From an uncultured Chloroflexia bacterium (GTDB taxonomy: Bacteria > Chloroflexota > Limnocylindria > QHBO01), in contig CAWHAZ010000002.1 of NCBI GenBank assembly GCA_963827475.1, forward strand, positions 1 to 64,000: a stretch of 64,000 nt of DNA. Direction: 5' to 3'. This document shows positions 6,433 to 13,125 of this stretch, in pieces. Position 1 is the first letter of the stretch; the number at the start of each line of letters is the position of its first letter. The notes under the pieces were generated by a model. The model did not search any database and was not told the origin of the DNA. It saw only the letters and a program-made list of their open reading frames with translations. Made by a program: the position numbers and the translations under genes.

Positions 6433-8115
6433 CTAACGCACCTCCGGCGCGTCGACCAGCTGTCCGCCGGTGATCTCGAGCGTGCGCTGGAGCAGGGCGT
6501 TGGCGTCGTCGCTCTCGCCGGGGGCGAGTGCCTGCTCGACCGTGAGCGGCTCGAGGTCGACCGAGGCGGCCACGCACTCGACGGCCCAGGAGCTGCCGAA
6601 CATCTGGCCGAGGAGGTCCTCGATGGCGCGGGAGCGCTCGACGACCCGGCCGCGGAGGAACTCGCGACCCTCGGGGAAGGCGAGGGTCAGCCGCGCGCCG
6701 TCGAGCTGGTACGGGCGGCACTCCTTGATCAGCGGCTTGACGACGGGGCTCGCTCGGTCGACGACGTCTCCCCACCGGCCGCGGATCGTCTCGAGGCTCG
6801 GTCGCTCCCCGTTCGGGACGGCCGGGATCGGCGCAGGCTCGGCCGGGGGGCTCTCGGCGGCAGTGGCAACCGGGACCTCGGCGGCGACCGGGACCTCGGC
6901 GGCGGCTCGACGGCGGCGGGCGCGCTCACAGGGGGCGCCACCGGTTCGGGGGCAGGTCGCGGAGCGCTCGGCGTCGCCTTCGGAGCCGTAGGTTTCGCTG
7001 GCTGGCGCTACCGCTCGCGCCTCCACGTGCACGGGCGCAGTGGTCGCGGGCACCGGCGAGCCGACATCGATGGCGGTCAGCTCGAGCAGCAGGCGGGCCC
7101 GGCCCTCGCGGGCGCCGGCGGTGCCGGCCTCCGACGTCGCGCGCAGGATGGCGGCCAGGCGGCGGGCGGTCGCCGGATCCGCGGCCACGGTCAACAGCCG
7201 CCGGCGTCCCTCGGTCTCGAGCTGCTGGGCGACCTGGCCAAGGTCACGTCCCGCATCGGACAGGTCCGCGATCCGCTGCAGCGCGTCGGGTGCGGCGCCG
7301 GCGACCAGCGCGTCGAGCAACCCGCCGATCGCCTCCTCGTCGGCCAGGCCGACGGCGTCGCGGACGGAGGACTCCTCCACCCGGTCGCCGGCGTAGGCCA
7401 TCACCTGGTCGAGCAGCGACTCCGCGTCGCGCATCCCGCCATCGGCCAGGCGGGCAATCAGCTCCAGCGCCTCCGGATCGGCGGCCACGCCCTCCGTGCT
7501 CGTGATGCGGGTCAGCTTGGCGGCGATGACATCGGTCGGCAGGCGACGGAAGTCATGACGCTGGGTGCGGCTGATGATGGTGGGCGGGACACGGTGGGTA
7601 TCGGTCGTGGCCAGGATGAAGACGACGTGGTCCGGGGGCTCCTCGATCAGCTTGAGCAGCGCGTTGAACGCGTGCGGGCTGAGCATGTGGACCTCGTCGA
7701 TGATGTAGACGCGCCGCCGAAGGTCGGCGGGGGCGGTGAGTGCCCGCATGACCAGGTCGCGGGCGTCGTCGACCAGGCCGTGGGACGCGGCGTCGATCTC
7801 GATGACGTCGAGCGCGCGACCGTCACGAATGGCGACGCACGCCGCACAGGTGTCGCACGGCTCGCCGTCCTCCCCCCGGTTCAGGCAGTTGATCGCCTTG
7901 GCCAGGATCCGGGCGGTCGAGGTCTTGCCGGTGCCGCGCGGACCGACGAACAGGTAGGCATGCACGATCCGGTCGGTGGCCACGGCCCGGCGGAGGGTGT
8001 TGACGATGGGGTCCTGGCCCACGACCTCGGCAAAGCGCTGTGCGCGCCAGCGGCGGTAGATGGCCCGCCGCGGATCGGCCACGGCGGGCTGGTCGGGGGT
8101 GGTGGGATCGGTCAA
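6433..8115 (-). CDS. dnaX: DNA polymerase III subunit gamma/tau (start approximate, TTG)
   Basis: YRRWRAQRF, GPRGTGKT, zinc Cys cluster, IIDEVHML, DGGMRDA. Confidence 0.95.
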   Translation of the reverse strand: MTDPTTPDQPAVADPRRAIYRRWRAQRFAEVVGQDPIVNTLRRAVATDRIVHAYLFVGPRGTGKTSTARILAKAINCLNRGEDGEPCDTCAACVAIRDGRALDVIEIDAASHGLVDDARDLVMRALTAPADLRRRVYIIDEVHMLSPHAFNALLKLIEEPPDHVVFILATTDTHRVPPTIISRTQRHDFRRLPTDVIAAKLTRITSTEGVAADPEALELIARLADGGMRDAESLLDQVMAYAGDRVEESSVRDAVGLADEEAIGGLLDALVAGAAPDALQRIADLSDAGRDLGQVAQQLETEGRRRLLTVAADPATARRLAAILRATSEAGTAGAREGRARLLLELTAIDVGSPVPATTAPVHVEARAVAPASETYGSEGDAERSATCPRTGGAPCERARRRRAAAEVPVAAEVPVATAAESPPAEPAPIPAVPNGERPSLETIRGRWGDVVDRASPVVKPLIKECRPYQLDGARLTLAFPEGREFLRGRVVERSRAIEDLLGQMFGSSWAVECVAASVDLEPLTVEQALAPGESDDANALLQRTLEITGGQLVDAPEVR

Positions 8116-8170
8116 GGCAGGCTCATCGGTACGTCGGTCTAACCCTACCGCGACTGGCGGAGGGCGGTTC

Positions 8171-8443
8171 GGCCGTGCGCCCGGCATCGGGCATCGGGCC
8201 ACCCGCCATCGTCACGGAGCCCGGCTCCAGCCAGGTCGTCCCACGGCACTCGACGGAGGACCGCTTACCGCTGCTTCCTTCCGGACCTGACGGGGTTCAC
8301 GGGCCGTCGCTGCGTGGGACCCGACTCTCAACGTCGGGCGCCGTCACGGGAGGCGGAGGTCGACGACCTCAGCCGGGATGTCAGCCCCGCTAGAGCGGAT
8401 TGCGGGTCACAGGGCACCGCTAACTCCCCGCCTGAGCACGGCC
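8171..8443 (-). ncRNA. ffs: Large (Alu-domain) bacterial SRP RNA
   Basis: Core GTCAGGTCCGGAAGGAAGCAGC; 5' GGGGAGTTAGCGGTGCCCTGTGACCCGCAATCCGCT; paired ends GCCGTGC/GCACGGC; upstream of dnaX. Confidence 0.93.
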
Positions 8444-8464
8444 GGGCCGGATGGTACCCGAAGG

Positions 8465-8552
8465 TGGCGGAGAGGGGGGGATTCGAACCCCCGACGGGTT
8501 GCCCCGAACCGCATTTCCAATGCGGCGCCATAGGCCTCTAGGCGACCTCTCC
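8465..8552 (-). tRNA. tRNA-Ser(GGA)
   Basis: Anticodon arm CCGCA-TTGGAAA-TGCGG, long variable arm, GTTCGAATC, CCA end. Confidence 0.96.
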
Positions 8553-8577
8553 ACGAGGCGCGGGAGACGGGTTCAGG

Positions 8578-8664
<87 letters not shown>

Positions 8665-8670
8665 GGCGGC

Positions 8671-9161
8671 CGAGTCTAGCAGAGGGTCAGGCTCAGGCCG
8701 GGAGCGCGGCCTCGTCCTTCAGCCGGCGCGCTTCCGCCTCGCGCACGCCGGAAATGACCGATATCTGGTGTCCCAGCTTCGGGTTGCGGGCGAGGTCCAG
8801 GACGGACCCGGCGCAGCCGCGGTCGGGGTCGGGGGTGGCGAAGACCAGGACCTCGACCCGGGCCTCGACGAGCGCGCCGACGCACATCGCGCATGGCTCG
8901 CAGGTCGCGAAGATCGTGACCTCCGACAGGCGGTGGCCCTCGAGCTTGCGGGCGGCGGCCTGCACGGTGAGCAGCACGGCATGGGCGGTCGGGTCGCTGT
9001 TCTGGAGGCGGCGGTCGTGGTCGCGACCGATCATGGCGTCGTCGAGGACGGCCACGGCGCCGATGGGACTTCCACCCTCCTCGGCGCCTCGCCGGGCCTC
9101 GGAGATGGCCTCGGCCATGAACAGCTCGTAGTTCACCGGACGGCGAGTCTAGCAGAGGGTC
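8671..9161 (-). repeat. 18-bp direct repeat CGAGTCTAGCAGAGGGTC (8671-8688, 9144-9161) flanking tadA; contains extended -10 TGnTAGACT
   Basis: Identical copies upstream of tRNA-Ser(CGA) and of tadA on the minus strand. Confidence 0.8.
8693..9136 (-). CDS. tadA: TadA-like tRNA adenosine deaminase homologue with degenerate active site
   Basis: PIGAV, DPTAHAV (normally HAE), EPCAMC, GCAGS; location among tRNA-Ser genes and ffs. Confidence 0.85.
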   Translation of the reverse strand: MNYELFMAEAISEARRGAEEGGSPIGAVAVLDDAMIGRDHDRRLQNSDPTAHAVLLTVQAAARKLEGHRLSEVTIFATCEPCAMCVGALVEARVEVLVFATPDPDRGCAGSVLDLARNPKLGHQISVISGVREAEARRLKDEAALPA

Positions 9162-9191
9162 CGGAGCGCCCTGCCGTATCCTCATTGACCG

Positions 9192-10634
9192 ATGCCGGCC
9201 TGGACGCGCCTCGACACCGTGCTGCTGGTGACGGTGACCGGGGTCGCGGCGGCGCTCCGGTTGTGGGACCTGGGACAGCCGGCCGCACTCGTCTTCGACG
9301 AGATCTTCTACGCCCAGAACGCCTGCCTGCTGGTCGCGTCGCCGGACATCTGTGGCATCACCGAGCCGGTCAGCAACGCCCATCCGCCACTCGGCCAGTG
9401 GCTCATCGCGGCCGGGATCGCGATCGTCGGCTATGACCCCTTCGGCTGGCGGCTTGCGGCGGCCGTCGTCGGGTCGTTGACCGTGGCCCTCACCTTCGTC
9501 CTGGCCCGGCTCGTGATCCAGACCGATTCGGCGCGGGCCGCAGCCATCGGTGCCGCCGTCGCGGCGGGCCTGCTCGCGGTGGACCTCCTGCACCTGGTCC
9601 AGTCGCGGGTCGCGATGCTCGACGTGTTCCTGGCGCTGTTCGTGGTCGCCGCGTTCGTGGCCGTCGTGCTCGACCTGCGCAGCACGCCGCGGCCTGGCCG
9701 CGGCATCGGTCAGTGGCTGTTCGGCCGGCCCTGGCGGCTGGTGGCGGGCGTGCTGATCGGGGCAGCGGTGGCGGTGAAGTGGAGCGGCGTGTACTCGGCC
9801 CTGGGGGTCGTGTTCCTGGTGGTGGCCTGTGAAATCGTCGCCCGCCGGCGGGCGGAGGACGGCAGCCCGCGCGGATGGGGAGCGGCGTTCGGGATGGCGC
9901 TGCGGGCGGAGGGGCTGCGGACGGCGGTGCTCCTGGGCGTGGTCCCGCTCCTCGTCTACCTGGCCACCTACATCGGGGTCGCGGAGGGTGCACTCGTGGC
10001 AGTGCCCTGGCGCGAGGGGAGCTGGCTGTACGACGTGGCCCAGCACCAGCTGGCCATGGCCCGATTCCATGTCGGGCTCGAAGGGCAGCACCCGTACGAG
10101 TCGCCCTCGTGGTCGTGGTTCCTGCTGAAGCGCCCGGTCGCGTTCTGGTTCGAGGAGAGCTCGACCTACCGGCACATCCTCTCGATGGGCAACCCCCTGG
10201 CCTGGTGGCCGGCGCTGGCGGTCCTCGGCTGGCTCGGCATCAGATGGATCCGCGGCAACCGGAGCCTGGGCGCATCGGTCATCCTCGTGGGTGCCTTGTC
10301 GGCCTACCTGCCGTGGCTCGTGCTCGGCTTTGCCCGGAGCCAGATCTTCCTGTGGTACGTGTTGCCGGCCCTGCCGTTCCTCTATGCCGCGGTCGGGATC
10401 GCCGCGGTCCGCTGGCGCGGCTGGGCGCGGGGGCTGCTCGTCATCGGCCTCGTCGGGGCGCTCGCCGGATTCGTGTTCTTCTGGCCGATCGCGACGGCTT
10501 CACCACTGGCGCCGGACGACTGGCGGCTCCGGATGTGGTTCACCGACTGCGAGCGGCCCGGCGCGGAGACCCTGGAGCTCCCCGACGACACGATCAACAC
10601 CGGTCCCCCGCCCGACGGGTGGTGCTGGATCTGA
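9192..10634 (+). CDS. Polyprenol-phosphate-mannose protein O-mannosyltransferase (PMT/GT39-like)
   Basis: VFDEIFY, HPPLG, SRVAMLD, KWSG, HPYES, GNPLAWW motifs. Confidence 0.88.
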   Translation: MPAWTRLDTVLLVTVTGVAAALRLWDLGQPAALVFDEIFYAQNACLLVASPDICGITEPVSNAHPPLGQWLIAAGIAIVGYDPFGWRLAAAVVGSLTVALTFVLARLVIQTDSARAAAIGAAVAAGLLAVDLLHLVQSRVAMLDVFLALFVVAAFVAVVLDLRSTPRPGRGIGQWLFGRPWRLVAGVLIGAAVAVKWSGVYSALGVVFLVVACEIVARRRAEDGSPRGWGAAFGMALRAEGLRTAVLLGVVPLLVYLATYIGVAEGALVAVPWREGSWLYDVAQHQLAMARFHVGLEGQHPYESPSWSWFLLKRPVAFWFEESSTYRHILSMGNPLAWWPALAVLGWLGIRWIRGNRSLGASVILVGALSAYLPWLVLGFARSQIFLWYVLPALPFLYAAVGIAAVRWRGWARGLLVIGLVGALAGFVFFWPIATASPLAPDDWRLRMWFTDCERPGAETLELPDDTINTGPPPDGWCWI

Positions 10635-10638
10635 TCGT

Positions 10639-11229
10639 CTAGCCCCCGAACAGCCCTTCGAGCAGCTGCTGGAAGAACTCGCTGCGGTCGATGTTGGCGA
10701 CGTGGGTGAACCACTCGTCCTGGAGCTTGTAGACGACGATGAGAATCCCGAGCGGCCACCGATACTGGTGCAGGGCGGCGAACCCGACCTCCTGCCAGTT
10801 GGGGTGATGGCGGACCACCCGCTGCCAGGCCAGGATGGTCGCCGTCACCAGGAACAGCGGCTCGAGGAAGTTCGGGAACAGGGCGAGGAACAGCTCCTCC
10901 TCGGTCAGCAGGAAGGCGACCTGGCCGATGGAGCGGAACAGGAACAGCCCGAGCATCAGCCGTCTGATCGGCCACTGGTTGCGGTATCCGACGACGACGA
11001 TCGCCACGTACGTCACCCAGTCGGAGATCTTGTCGACCGGCTGGTAGATGTCGTTCGGCAGGCCTAAGGGGATGAGCAGGTCGCCGTCGATCCCGTCGAG
11101 GGCGAAGTTGGCCCAGCCGGCCGCGAACGGGAAGCGGATGATGAGCAGCGGGAGCGCGAACTTCAGCGCGACGATCAGCACGATCGCGGCCGTTTCGAGC
11201 GGACTGCTACGCATCTCGCGCCACGTCAC
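10639..11229 (-). CDS. Hypothetical membrane protein
   Basis: Hydrophobic ORF with LDGIDGD and YQPVDKISD (DxxD pairs reminiscent of CDP-alcohol phosphotransferases). Confidence 0.7.
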   Translation of the reverse strand: MTWREMRSSPLETAAIVLIVALKFALPLLIIRFPFAAGWANFALDGIDGDLLIPLGLPNDIYQPVDKISDWVTYVAIVVVGYRNQWPIRRLMLGLFLFRSIGQVAFLLTEEELFLALFPNFLEPLFLVTATILAWQRVVRHHPNWQEVGFAALHQYRWPLGILIVVYKLQDEWFTHVANIDRSEFFQQLLEGLFGG

Positions 11230-11254
11230 CAGTGTGAGGCCTGGCCACGAGGGA

Positions 11255-11330
11255 TGGCGTGCCCGAGAGGACTCGAACCTCCGACCTTTAGGTCCGCAAC
11301 CTAACGCTCTATCCGCTGAGCTACGGGCAC
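11255..11330 (-). tRNA. tRNA-Arg(GCG)
   Basis: Anticodon arm TTAGG-TTGCGGA-CCTAA; A20 in D-loop (Arg identity element), G73, CCA. Confidence 0.93.
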
Positions 11331-11341
11331 CCGAGACGATC

Positions 11342-11433
11342 TGGCGGAGAGGGAGGGATTCGAACCCTCGGAAGAGGAAACCCCCTTCAACGGTTTAGCA
11401 AACCGCCGCACTAGGCCACTATGCGACCTCTCC
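11342..11433 (-). tRNA. tRNA-Ser(GCT)
   Basis: Anticodon arm GCGGT-TTGCTAA-ACCGT, long variable arm, CCA. Confidence 0.96.
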
Positions 11434-11544
11434 GGAAGCGGCGCCGATGATAGCATCTGCCCCTCTGGAACCGGCCCTCCCCGGCTGGCCCGACACGCCC
11501 CGCAGACGGCCGCCGGAAAGAGCATCCGAACGAGAAACCGACCT

Positions 11545-12421
11545 GTGACGCGCCTACTCATCATCGGCTCACCCGTTGTCCCTGGACCCGCCGAAGCGGT
11601 CCAGCGGGCCGCATTGAAGGCTGCCGGTCGACCAGATCGAGATCGAGCGCTGGGAACGCCGCGCCCACCAGCTCAGCGCGTCCCTGGGCGAGGTCGTCAA
11701 CCCCGATGTGGTGGGGGCGATGATCGGCTCGCCGCACAAGGAGAAGGCCGCCTCGCTCATCGGCATGCTCGCCGACGAGGCCCGCGCCAGCGGTGCGGTC
11801 AACACCGTGGTGAACCGCGATGGCCGCCTGCACGGGTACAACACCGATGTGGCCGGCGTGCGCGCCGGCCTGGAATCGGTCCTGCCCGAGAGCGCGTCCC
11901 GGTGGCCGGCCCAGGCGCTGGTGCTGGGGGCCGGCGGTGGAGCGCGAGCGGTCGTATCGGTCCTGCTGGAAGCCGGGGTGGGGCGGATCGCCGTCTTCAA
12001 CCGTCACCTCCACCGGGCCGAGGCGGTCGTTGCCCACTTCGACCGGGCCGCTCGGCAGTCCGACCTTCGAGCCCTGCCATGGCACGAGACGATCATCGAG
12101 GCCGAGCTCTCGAAGGCGCGGCTGCTGGTCAACGCGTCGGGGGTCGGGGCCGAGAGCGAGGAGAGCCCGATTCCGGCAGACCTGCTGCCCGACGACCTGA
12201 TCGTCCTCGACCTGGTCCTGAACCGGGCCGAAACGCCGCTCATGCGAGAGGTCGCTGCCCGGGACGGGACGGTGGCCAACGGTCAGGGCTCGTTCCTCGT
12301 GGCGCAGGCCGCAGCCTTCACCCTGTGGACCGGCGCGGAGGCGCCCACTGAGGTCATGCGCGCGGCGCTGGCCGCCCACCTGGGACTGCCGGAGGAGGGG
12401 CTCGCTGTCGTCGGCGACTGA
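11545..12421 (+). CDS. Shikimate dehydrogenase-like protein, divergent substrate site (frameshift near 11630)
   Basis: PHK, GAVNTV, GYNTD, GAGGGARA, FNR motifs. Confidence 0.8.
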
Positions 12422-12442
12422 GCCGCACCGGCGGGGCGGATC

Positions 12443-13030
12443 GTGATGTTCTACACGTCGGGCTGGGTCCATGTCATCTGCGGCTGCATGTTCTGCGGCA
12501 AGACCGACGAGATGCTGCGCCTGCTGCGCCGCTTCGCCATTGCCGGGCGCCAGGTGGTGCTGGTCAAGCCGCGGGTCGACACGCGGACGGCGGAGGAATC
12601 GGTCGTCTCCCGTTCCGGTGCCCAGCACCGCGCGGTGACGGTGGAGGGATCGGCGGATATCGAGGGCGTCGTCGGGATGGCCGATATCGTGGCGATCGAG
12701 GAAGGTCAGTTCTGGGACGCTGATCTGCCCGCGGTCGTCGAGCGACTGGCGGAGGGAGGCAAGCAGGTGCTCGTCACCGGGCTCGACCAGGACTTCCGCG
12801 GGGTTCCGTTCGGACCGATGCCCGCGCTCATGGCGCTCGCCGACCAGGTCACCAAGCTGACGGCCATCTGCATGGTCTGCGGCGAGCCGGCGACCCGGAC
12901 CCAGCGGCTGATCGACGGTCAGCCGGCCCCGGCGGATTCGGCCCTGATCATGGTCGGCGGGATGGGAGACGAGAAGTACGAGGCGCGCTGCCGCCTGCAC
13001 CACGAGGTTCCGGTCGCCGCGTCGGTCTAG
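12443..13030 (+). CDS. tdk: Thymidine kinase
   Basis: GCMFCGKT, IEEGQF, GLDQDFRG, CxxC and YEARCRLH. Confidence 0.95.
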   Translation: MMFYTSGWVHVICGCMFCGKTDEMLRLLRRFAIAGRQVVLVKPRVDTRTAEESVVSRSGAQHRAVTVEGSADIEGVVGMADIVAIEEGQFWDADLPAVVERLAEGGKQVLVTGLDQDFRGVPFGPMPALMALADQVTKLTAICMVCGEPATRTQRLIDGQPAPADSALIMVGGMGDEKYEARCRLHHEVPVAASV

Positions 13031-13037
13031 CGTCGCG

Positions 13038-13125
13038 TGGCGGAGGGGGTGGGATTCGAACCCACGGAAGCTTGCGCTTCAACGGTTTTCAAGACCGCCG
13101 CATTCGTCCGCTCTGCCACCCCTCC
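13038..13125 (-). tRNA. tRNA-Ser(TGA)
   Basis: Anticodon arm GCGGT-CTTGAAA-ACCGT, long variable arm, CCA. Confidence 0.96.

Follow-up and report, generated by a model that had tools for sequence, protein, structure and literature searches.

The locus and its genes

This report concerns two minus-strand genes within a 64,000-nucleotide stretch of DNA (hereafter the window; positions 1 to 64,000 of contig CAWHAZ010000002.1, assembly GCA_963827475.1) from a member of the Limnocylindria, a class of uncultured Chloroflexota found in soil and freshwater. One is a tRNA-Arg gene with anticodon GCG, and the other encodes a homolog of the tRNA adenosine deaminase TadA in which the HAE motif reads HAV, such that the proton-shuttle glutamate of TadA is replaced by valine. 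As argued below, the latter is probably a TadA-derived pseudo-enzyme that has been kept under selection for a job other than deamination, in a clade that would decode the CGN arginine codons without inosine. Both features had been remarked upon in a first-pass annotation of this DNA, and both are borne out: the anticodon at 11295-11297 reads cgc on the plus strand, and as such GCG, within the loop UUGCGGA, and the open reading frame (ORF) of the deaminase homolog contains DPTAHAV...CEPCAMC with a GTG codon at the position in question (Table 1).

On the minus strand the HAV gene is followed by tRNA-Ser(cga), tRNA-Ser(gga), the RNA of the signal recognition particle (SRP) and dnaX. The region is also rich in serine isoacceptors, four of which (GGA, CGA, GCU and UGA) lie within 4.7 kb (window 8465-13125) in the company of tRNA-Arg(GCG), the SRP RNA and dnaX. 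A 196-residue ORF at 10639-11229 (minus strand), situated between a mannosyltransferase-like gene and tRNA-Arg(GCG), appears hydrophobic and has no Pfam or NCBIfam match. A scan of positions 8100-9400 for promoters and terminators found none, with a consensus that may not fit Chloroflexota.

Table 1. Genes, codons and motifs of the locus, in window coordinates.
Feature	Position	Strand	Basis and remarks
dnaX	6433..8202	-	ORF; named from a reading of the translation only, no family search
Large SRP RNA	8173..8441	-	Rfam RF01854, 151 bits; followed by dnaX
tRNA-Ser(GGA)	8465..8552	-	ARAGORN and Rfam
tRNA-Ser(CGA)	8578..8664	-	ARAGORN and Rfam; 28 nt downstream of the HAV ORF
Putative TadA-derived pseudo-deaminase, positional tadA ortholog	8693..9136	-	ORF, 147 residues
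Short acidic C-terminus ...RRLKDEAALPA, without the FFxxxR helix motif	8693..8737	-	sequence reading
Cys82-x-x-Cys85 zinc motif, kept	8882..8893	-	alignment
Val54 codon GTG (proton-shuttle Glu in TadA)	8975..8977	-	plus strand reads cac
His52 codon	8981..8983	-	sequence reading
Asp41 codon GAC (Asn in canonical TadA)	9014..9016	-	sequence reading
tRNA-Arg(GCG)	11255..11330	-	ARAGORN; Rfam tRNA, 69 bits
tRNA-Ser(GCU)	11342..11433	-	ARAGORN and Rfam; in tandem with tRNA-Arg(GCG), 11 nt apart, Ser first
tRNA-Ser(UGA)	13038..13125	-	ARAGORN and Rfam; in the same tRNA cluster, further upstream

Arginine decoding in the host genome

The genome to which the window belongs (G000) is a metagenome-assembled genome (MAG) of 7 contigs, 1.92 Mb and 70% G+C that is 90% complete, and the HAV gene and tRNA-Arg(GCG) share a single 158-kb contig within it. 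None of the 48 tRNAs called by ARAGORN across the genome has adenosine at position 34 (A34), and the arginine anticodons are GCG, UCG, CCG, UCU and CCU. The first-pass annotation had anticipated a genome devoid of tRNA-Arg(ACG) and in possession of tRNA-Arg(UCG), and this is what we observe: ACG is absent from the ARAGORN calls of this genome, and a sequence pattern for it found no match in any of 206 other genomes of the three Limnocylindria families (f1, f3 and f4) whose tRNA-Arg reads GCG. Neither tRNA-Ile(GAU) nor tRNA-Ala(UGC) was found by ARAGORN, and as such the rRNA operon is probably unassembled, so that this genome taken alone does not exclude a hidden ACG gene.

By the usual wobble rules GCG would read CGU and CGC, UCG would read CGA and CGG, and CCG would read CGG; since these three anticodons cover every CGN codon, inosine would not be needed. 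Across 1077 long ORFs of the genome, arginine is encoded by CGC (40.4%), CGG (36.1%), CGA (10.5%) and CGU (7.0%). This part of the observation is ordinary and known in kind, with GCG, UCG and CCG standing in place of ICG and CCG. A pattern for tRNA-Arg(UCG) matched 23 of 26 f1 and 19 of 23 f3 genomes and is also common in ACG-bearing families, and its wide presence fits a published model, as set out in a passage of PMC3711424, in which a UCG tRNA makes inosine dispensable. In some f1 genomes this pattern occurs in arrays of 4-6 copies spaced 1-12 kb apart (G053:C2:292926-297776, G065:C7:369264-388185 and G043:C4:346210-358231), and G000 has one copy. ARAGORN also made four calls of 80-94 nt in G000 (C5:417943-418025, C6:47050-47143, C7:145354-145446 and C5:1061677-1061756), one of them an 83-nt second 'gcg'; none has an Rfam tRNA match at E<=1, and they are likely false positives that would inflate tRNA counts.

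The HAV protein

The HAV protein matches the Pfam families MafB19-deam (6e-27) and dCMP_cyt_deam_1 (1e-19), which denote the cytidine/deoxycytidylate deaminase (CDA) fold. Its best NCBIfam family is TadA (NF008113), at 117 bits and beneath the 150-bit cut-off, and its closest solved structures are TadA (7cph at 2e-30, 2b3j and 1z3a), aligned without gaps over approximately 130 residues at 36-40% identity. An AlphaFold 2 model built from 17 of 29 clade sequences is placed by Foldseek at a template modeling score of approximately 0.8 to TadA. In an alignment of 17 sequences H52, C82 and C85 are invariant, as are 41 columns in all despite an overall divergence of about 50%.

The catalytic position has changed. 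Valine occupies position 54 in all 29 sequences of a set composed of 28 f1 and f3 relatives and the window protein, and across the 37 clade members that were read the residue is always aliphatic (Val, Ile or Leu) and never Glu; the valine noted in the first-pass annotation is accordingly one of three residues that the clade employs at this site. For comparison, we examined the best 150 of 12,306 database matches, of which 21 were HAV proteins and 129 were not. HAE was present in 127 of the 129, the remainder being one HGE and one CFS. Position 41, which is Asn in at least 124 of these 127 HAE representatives, is Asp in 17 of the 21 HAV representatives, and Gln, Arg, Ser, Leu and Glu are also encountered there. 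Further departures from the HAE proteins are the loss of EVP (to xxP), variability of the TLE residue, and a change of Ala to Val after the second Cys.

The C-terminus is also remodeled. Of 8 HAE copies from the Limnocylindria and the f1 genome G020, 7 have the canonical LLxxFFxxxR helix, and the FF motif occurs in 20 of 20 TadAs from other Chloroflexota, whereas the helix motif is absent by eye from 23 of 23 HAV-clade C-termini, which carry a short acidic tail instead. The f1 proteins end in ...DEAALPA and the f3 C-termini differ; the model falls below 50 in predicted local distance difference test score (pLDDT) here, which is too weak to judge whether a zinc cap like the C-terminal Asp-Pro of ADAT3 is formed. 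The median isoelectric point (pI) of 23 of the 37 HAV-clade sequences is 5.2, with a net charge of -6, as compared to 6.6 and -1 for HAE TadAs of the Limnocylindria (n=7) and 6.9 and 0 for HAE representatives (n=69). The 42-member cluster (90% identity) that holds the window protein is named 'tRNA(adenine34) deaminase' by JGI and 'nucleoside deaminase' by NCBI, and the former name is probably wrong for the HAV clade.

A separate 154-residue HAV TadA-like protein (P0026, from a single 5,993-nt contig) was encountered among the database matches. It retains EVP and a near-canonical helix (LLEDFLAARR), has Leu at the Asn41 position, and falls outside the Limnocylindria clade in the second of our trees (below); it may represent an independent inactivation in another lineage.

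Distribution in the Limnocylindria and the Chloroflexota

Four sequence patterns were scanned across one set of 301 Limnocylindria genomes (G000 and 300 others) in families f1 to f5 (Table 2), and reversed-pattern controls of the HAV scan gave 0 matches. The tallies include the unpublished genomes G086, G103, G108, G122, G127, G134, G169, G250 and G302, and no claim is made on these alone. The f1 and f3 families combine GCG with the HAV gene, f4 has GCG without such a gene, and f2 and f5 pair ACG with a canonical HAE TadA. A protein search of 40 relatives gave the same picture: an ortholog was found in 28, all in f1 or f3 and all HAV at 49-95% identity, and a canonical HAE TadA was found in the f5 genome G033 and six f2 genomes. 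All 29 loci that were scanned in relatives have a tRNA-Arg with GCG, which mostly adjoins tRNA-Ser(gct). Two unpublished genomes, G016 and G021, are among the 28 HAV relatives, the 29 tRNA loci and the within-genus comparisons of substitution rates given below, and here too no claim is made on them alone.

Table 2. Genomes with a pattern match over genomes scanned, by Limnocylindria family.
Pattern	f1	f2	f3	f4	f5
Arg loop, A or G at 34	89/103	63/92	83/91	10/12	2/2
Arg loop, A only (ACG)	0/103	60/92	0/91	0/12	2/2
HAV...EPCxMC	86/103	0/92	77/91	0/12	0/2
HAE...EPCxMCAG	3/103	68/92	1/91	0/12	2/2

Many departures from these family states can be traced. Ten f1 and f3 genomes without a pattern match were searched with the protein, and eight held an ortholog (three HAV with a one-residue deletion, two HAL and three HAI), while the protein query found no match in the remaining two. 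A further f3 genome, G026, reads HPV before its locus becomes masked, and was not used. Matches to the HAE pattern in f1 and f3 number four, of which those in G043 and G254 are non-TadA deaminases and those in G115 and G020 are taken up in the Discussion. In f2, the exceptions G027, G232 and G071 carry GCG and not ACG according to ARAGORN, have no HAE pattern match, and yield only TadA-family matches of 41-47 bits inside frames of 358-658 residues. There are f2 genomes that have TadA without a match to the tRNA pattern (G152, G031, G273, G054 and G147), of which G152 was shown to have ACG. No TadA-family match was found in the two f4 genomes examined, and in one f4 genome (G032) unrelated genes fill the interval from tRNA-Ser(cga) to tRNA-Arg(gcg). 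The f5 'ACG' match in G033 (L223, G033:C140:14470-14560) is a tRNA-Arg(ACG)-like piece with acceptor, D and anticodon arms and no T arm that neither ARAGORN nor Rfam calls; it was rejected, and as such the ACG state of f5 rests on G241.

At the level of the phylum, 301 Chloroflexota genomes were scanned for the GCG pattern and with a TadA hidden Markov model (HMM) at E<=1e-25; the unpublished G343, G439, G464 and G551 are counted in these tallies, again with no claim made on them alone. The GCG pattern is present in 219 of the 301, across most families. The HMM matched 54 genomes, 30 of them in f1 and f3 (95-128 bits, all under the cut-off) and 24 with canonical TadA (147-194 bits) in families f9, f19, f28, f26, f56 and f61. 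All 24 of the latter are without a single GCG match, and conversely 186 of 186 GCG genomes outside the Limnocylindria have no TadA-family match. In the five TadA-positive genomes that were checked tRNA-Arg(acg) was present in each, and 20 canonical TadAs, drawn from 20 of the 24 genomes, all have HAE, EVP, Asn41 and the C-terminal FF motif. Decoding with GCG, presumably free of inosine, is the common state in the Chloroflexota and is normally accompanied by loss of tadA; f1 and f3 alone keep a homolog. Only a few families combine ACG with a canonical TadA (f9, f19, f28, f26, f56, f61 and f2/f5). We found no passage in the literature that states a GCG majority or an absence of TadA for the Chloroflexota.

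The co-occurrence of the two traits that the first-pass annotation had proposed is therefore upheld by both sets of tallies. The state is, however, neither recent nor local, given that GCG prevails in the phylum as a whole and that the change of Glu to Val predates the separation of two families (see below).

Orthology, phylogeny and selection

The order of gene followed by tRNA-Ser(cga) is common to the HAV loci of f1 and f3, the HAE TadA of f5, and 10 of 20 canonical TadA loci of the Chloroflexota, in 7 of which tRNA-Ser(cga) lies directly downstream on the same strand. The proteins with HAV, HAI or HAL are united in a single clade with a long stem, both in a first tree of 75 rows (Shimodaira-Hasegawa approximate likelihood-ratio support, SH-aLRT, 99; stem 0.44) and in a second tree of 70 rows (SH-aLRT 100; stem 0.86), and the division into f1 and f3 subclades agrees with the taxonomy. 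Such topologies point to a single origin of the clade and to a change of Glu to Val that is older than the split between the f1 and f3 families.

Ratios of nonsynonymous to synonymous substitution rates (dN/dS; Nei-Gojobori, medians) are 0.127 for the HAV gene within the genus (120 pairs; range 0.05-0.24), 0.24 among other f1 genera and 0.32 within f3, while five groups of canonical TadA gave 0.08-0.31. The reading frame is open in all 37 HAV-clade orthologs that were read. These values argue for purifying selection equal in strength to that acting on active TadAs, as opposed to a gene in decay. The earlier suggestion that the deaminase gene had been kept is accurate insofar as it has been retained, and yet it has not merely been kept, as is evident from this selection, the replacement of Asn41 by Asp, the loss of the helix motif and the acidic shift.

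As for the tRNA, the proposal that A34 was changed to G in place finds agreement in one outgroup only: in the TadA-positive genome G532 (f61) the genes run Ser(tga)-Ser(gct)-Arg(acg), which matches the arrangement Ser(tga)...Ser(gct)-Arg(gcg) of the window, with ACG in the slot that GCG occupies there. In f2 and f5 the ACG gene adjoins Arg(tcg).

Discussion

We consider it probable that the HAV protein is a pseudo-enzyme derived from TadA that is kept under selection for a deamination-free job, in a clade that would decode CGN without inosine. With respect to bacterial TadA (2b3j, 1z3a and 7cph), it has the same fold, the same zinc ligands and the same slot upstream of tRNA-Ser(CGA) as is seen in related families; it differs by the change of Glu to Val, Ile or Leu, by Asn41 to Asp, EVP to xxP, a variable TLE, the missing FFxxxR, a lower pI and a family score beneath the cut-off, and the substrate tRNA-Arg(ACG) was not found in its genome. 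According to a portion of PMC8216470, TadA cannot do without its long C-terminal helix in binding the anticodon stem-loop. It is reasonable to postulate that the protein has lost both deamination and its grip on the anticodon loop, and, as our best guess, that it would be kept for the binding of a ligand or partner by way of the remodeled zinc pocket or the dimer surface. Such a course would be convergent with that of eukaryotic ADAT3, without an active partner, and the gene would have been deleted wherever selection for the second job lapsed, as in the streamlined f4, in those f2 genomes that have GCG and elsewhere in the phylum. More speculatively, the TadA family as a whole may possess a second, deamination-free activity, the only one that f1 and f3 have kept. 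The pocket with Asp41 and an aliphatic residue 54 would then hold its ligand (a purine, a nucleotide or a protein partner) and leave it unconverted, so that the protein would act as a reader or regulator and not an editor; we regard this extension as tentative.

A number of considerations weigh against this assessment. The inactivity of the protein, described as catalytically dead in the first-pass annotation, is deduced from the role that the glutamate plays in other CDA-fold enzymes, and Asp41 could in principle serve as a substitute acid or base; the proposal that the remodeled pocket binds something is, as stated, a guess. The structural model is of moderate confidence (pLDDT 73.7, and under 50 at the C-terminus). 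All of the genomes are MAGs, that of the window being 90% complete, and the pattern tallies miss variants, as shown by the eight orthologs among ten pattern-negative genomes. Contigs over the region were found in the RNA libraries X2, X3 and X6 of one study and in the DNA run X1 (Logan contigs), with record 17 of X3 covering 8614-9133; RNA-library contigs do cover the HAV gene, yet contigs cannot prove transcription or co-transcription. Two f1 genomes have TadA sequence of another kind. In G020 a canonical TadA is found as well; its contig, 7.6 kb in length, is probably foreign, as the ORFs there have only 31-44% identity to those of G000. G115 has a frameshifted, Bacteroidota-like TadA piece (L175:4970-6046, G115:C3) on a native-looking contig of 195 kb whose neighboring genes match G000 at 55-58%; the fragment is out of register past the zinc motif and in one frame runs into superoxide-dismutase-like sequence, and it could be a transfer, a chimera or an assembly error. 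Last, the free trees place the HA[VIL] clade near other Chloroflexota TadAs and not beside those of f2 and f5, with a weak backbone. In an approximately unbiased (AU) test, a tree that forces the clade together with the HAE TadAs of the Limnocylindria was not rejected (p-AU 0.855) and was in fact better by 27 log-likelihood units, which indicates that a better tree had escaped the quick free search. The phylogeny is compatible with vertical descent from a TadA of the Limnocylindria.

Several other explanations of the HAV protein merit consideration. It may still be an enzyme, with a rebuilt pocket in which Asp41 takes the part of Glu54 as acid or base toward some new substrate; a free nucleotide, a base of the guanine type or a different site in RNA would be candidates. 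In favor of this are the invariant zinc ligands, the prevalence of Asp41 in HAV representatives where HAE representatives have Asn, and purifying selection that equals that on active TadAs. However, position 54 is without exception aliphatic, position 41 is not invariant, and the motif of the anticodon-loop helix is gone. To our knowledge no CDA-fold deaminase works without the glutamate of its H/C-x-E motif. We judge a rebuilt enzyme to be unlikely.

A role as the inactive half of a heterodimer whose other half is an active deaminase, in the manner of ADAT3 for ADAT2, is favored by the change of Glu to Val and the shortened C-terminal helix, both of which ADAT3 has in common with the HAV protein as described in part of PMC8216470. 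The genome of the window encodes three CDA-fold proteins, two of which, besides the HAV protein, have an intact glutamate and might be thought candidate partners. One of these, the HAE protein (C5:322380-322862), matches guanine deaminase 1tiy over its full length at 1.5e-37 and the TadA profile at 79 bits over positions 5-106 only; it is by these matches a guanine deaminase, and there is accordingly no second HAE-type TadA in this genome, as the first-pass annotation had expected. The other is an HGE protein (G000:C2:134642-135106, minus strand; L003:1360-1824) with a PCDMC motif and a weak TadA profile match (54 bits). No conserved partner was found across f1 and f3: the HAV-protein query returned the HAV gene and no second CDA-fold match in nine genomes (G018, G019 and G021-G024 of f1; G034, G036 and G040 of f3). 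Furthermore, no A34 tRNA that could be edited was called in G000, and the protein, at 147 residues in all, has no N-terminal domain like that of ADAT3. A heterodimer is, on balance, improbable.

The gene might also be a neutral relic, either decaying or retained only because its DNA supplies the tRNA-Ser genes that follow with their promoter or transcript. Just 28 nt separate it from tRNA-Ser(CGA), a gap in which no terminator-like site was found, and in f4 and elsewhere the gene has been lost cleanly. An intact frame in every ortholog read, dN/dS values of 0.13-0.32, 41 invariant columns over about 50% divergence, and retention in at least 164 genomes of two families are difficult to reconcile with such a history, to which we assign a very low probability. 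That the two features are artefacts, whether of erroneous reads, of faulty assembly or of contamination, is refuted, and although the genome is a MAG nothing was found in favor of it: dozens of independent assemblies hold both states (28 of 28 relatives with HAV and 29 of 29 loci with GCG), the two features share one long contig, and a contig from an independent public run (X2 record 11, the one record for which we claim identity) is identical to 8970-9133 with 0 differences, the Val codon included.

The pseudo-enzyme that we favor has a close counterpart in eukaryotes. The portion of PMC8216470 that concerns ADAT3 explains its inactivity as follows: Glu is replaced by Val, the helix is shortened, the zinc site is capped and the surface is negative. 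Like ADAT3/Tad3p as depicted there, the HAV protein would be derived from TadA, has Val in place of the proton-shuttle Glu, and has a shortened C-terminal helix, a preserved zinc site and negative charge, and it matches ADAT3 chains at 7e-14 in a PDB search. Unlike ADAT3, it has no N-terminal tRNA-binding domain and no ADAT2-like active partner that we could find, and it originated independently, inside the bacterial TadA tree.

The decoding system likewise has known parallels. As reported in passages of PMC3711424, PMC8007984, PMC8629427 and PMC6063277, Mollicutes, Thermotogae, Spirochaetes and the candidate phyla radiation (CPR) also use tRNA-Arg(GCG) and tRNA-Arg(UCG), and the loss of ACG is linked there to the loss of TadA activity. 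Those lineages, however, are reported to have lost tadA, whereas in f1 and f3 a tadA homolog persists under selection; they are also reduced, while the f1 and f3 genomes are free-living and 70% G+C. It has been set down as a rule, in a statement found in PMC8072771, that bacteria without A34 tRNAs are also without TadA. This rule is true for 186 of 186 GCG genomes outside the Limnocylindria, and is broken by f1 and f3. Inosine-free CGN decoding was already known, and a retained dead TadA appears to be new: we found no prior description of one in the literature, although supplementary tables of the cited surveys may list Chloroflexi.

One practical consequence is that any pipeline that takes tadA as a sign of inosine at position 34 would arrive at a wrong view of decoding in these genomes. 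For the biology of the family, f1 and f3 provide a natural experiment on what the TadA scaffold does once it is unable to edit, and constitute a second, independent case of the Glu-to-Val route that gave rise to eukaryotic ADAT3. If a second activity of TadA does underlie the retention of this gene, the HAV protein would be the equivalent of ADAT3 in bacteria, though one that acts without a partner, and the difficulty of losing tadA in other lineages could have its cause in that activity.

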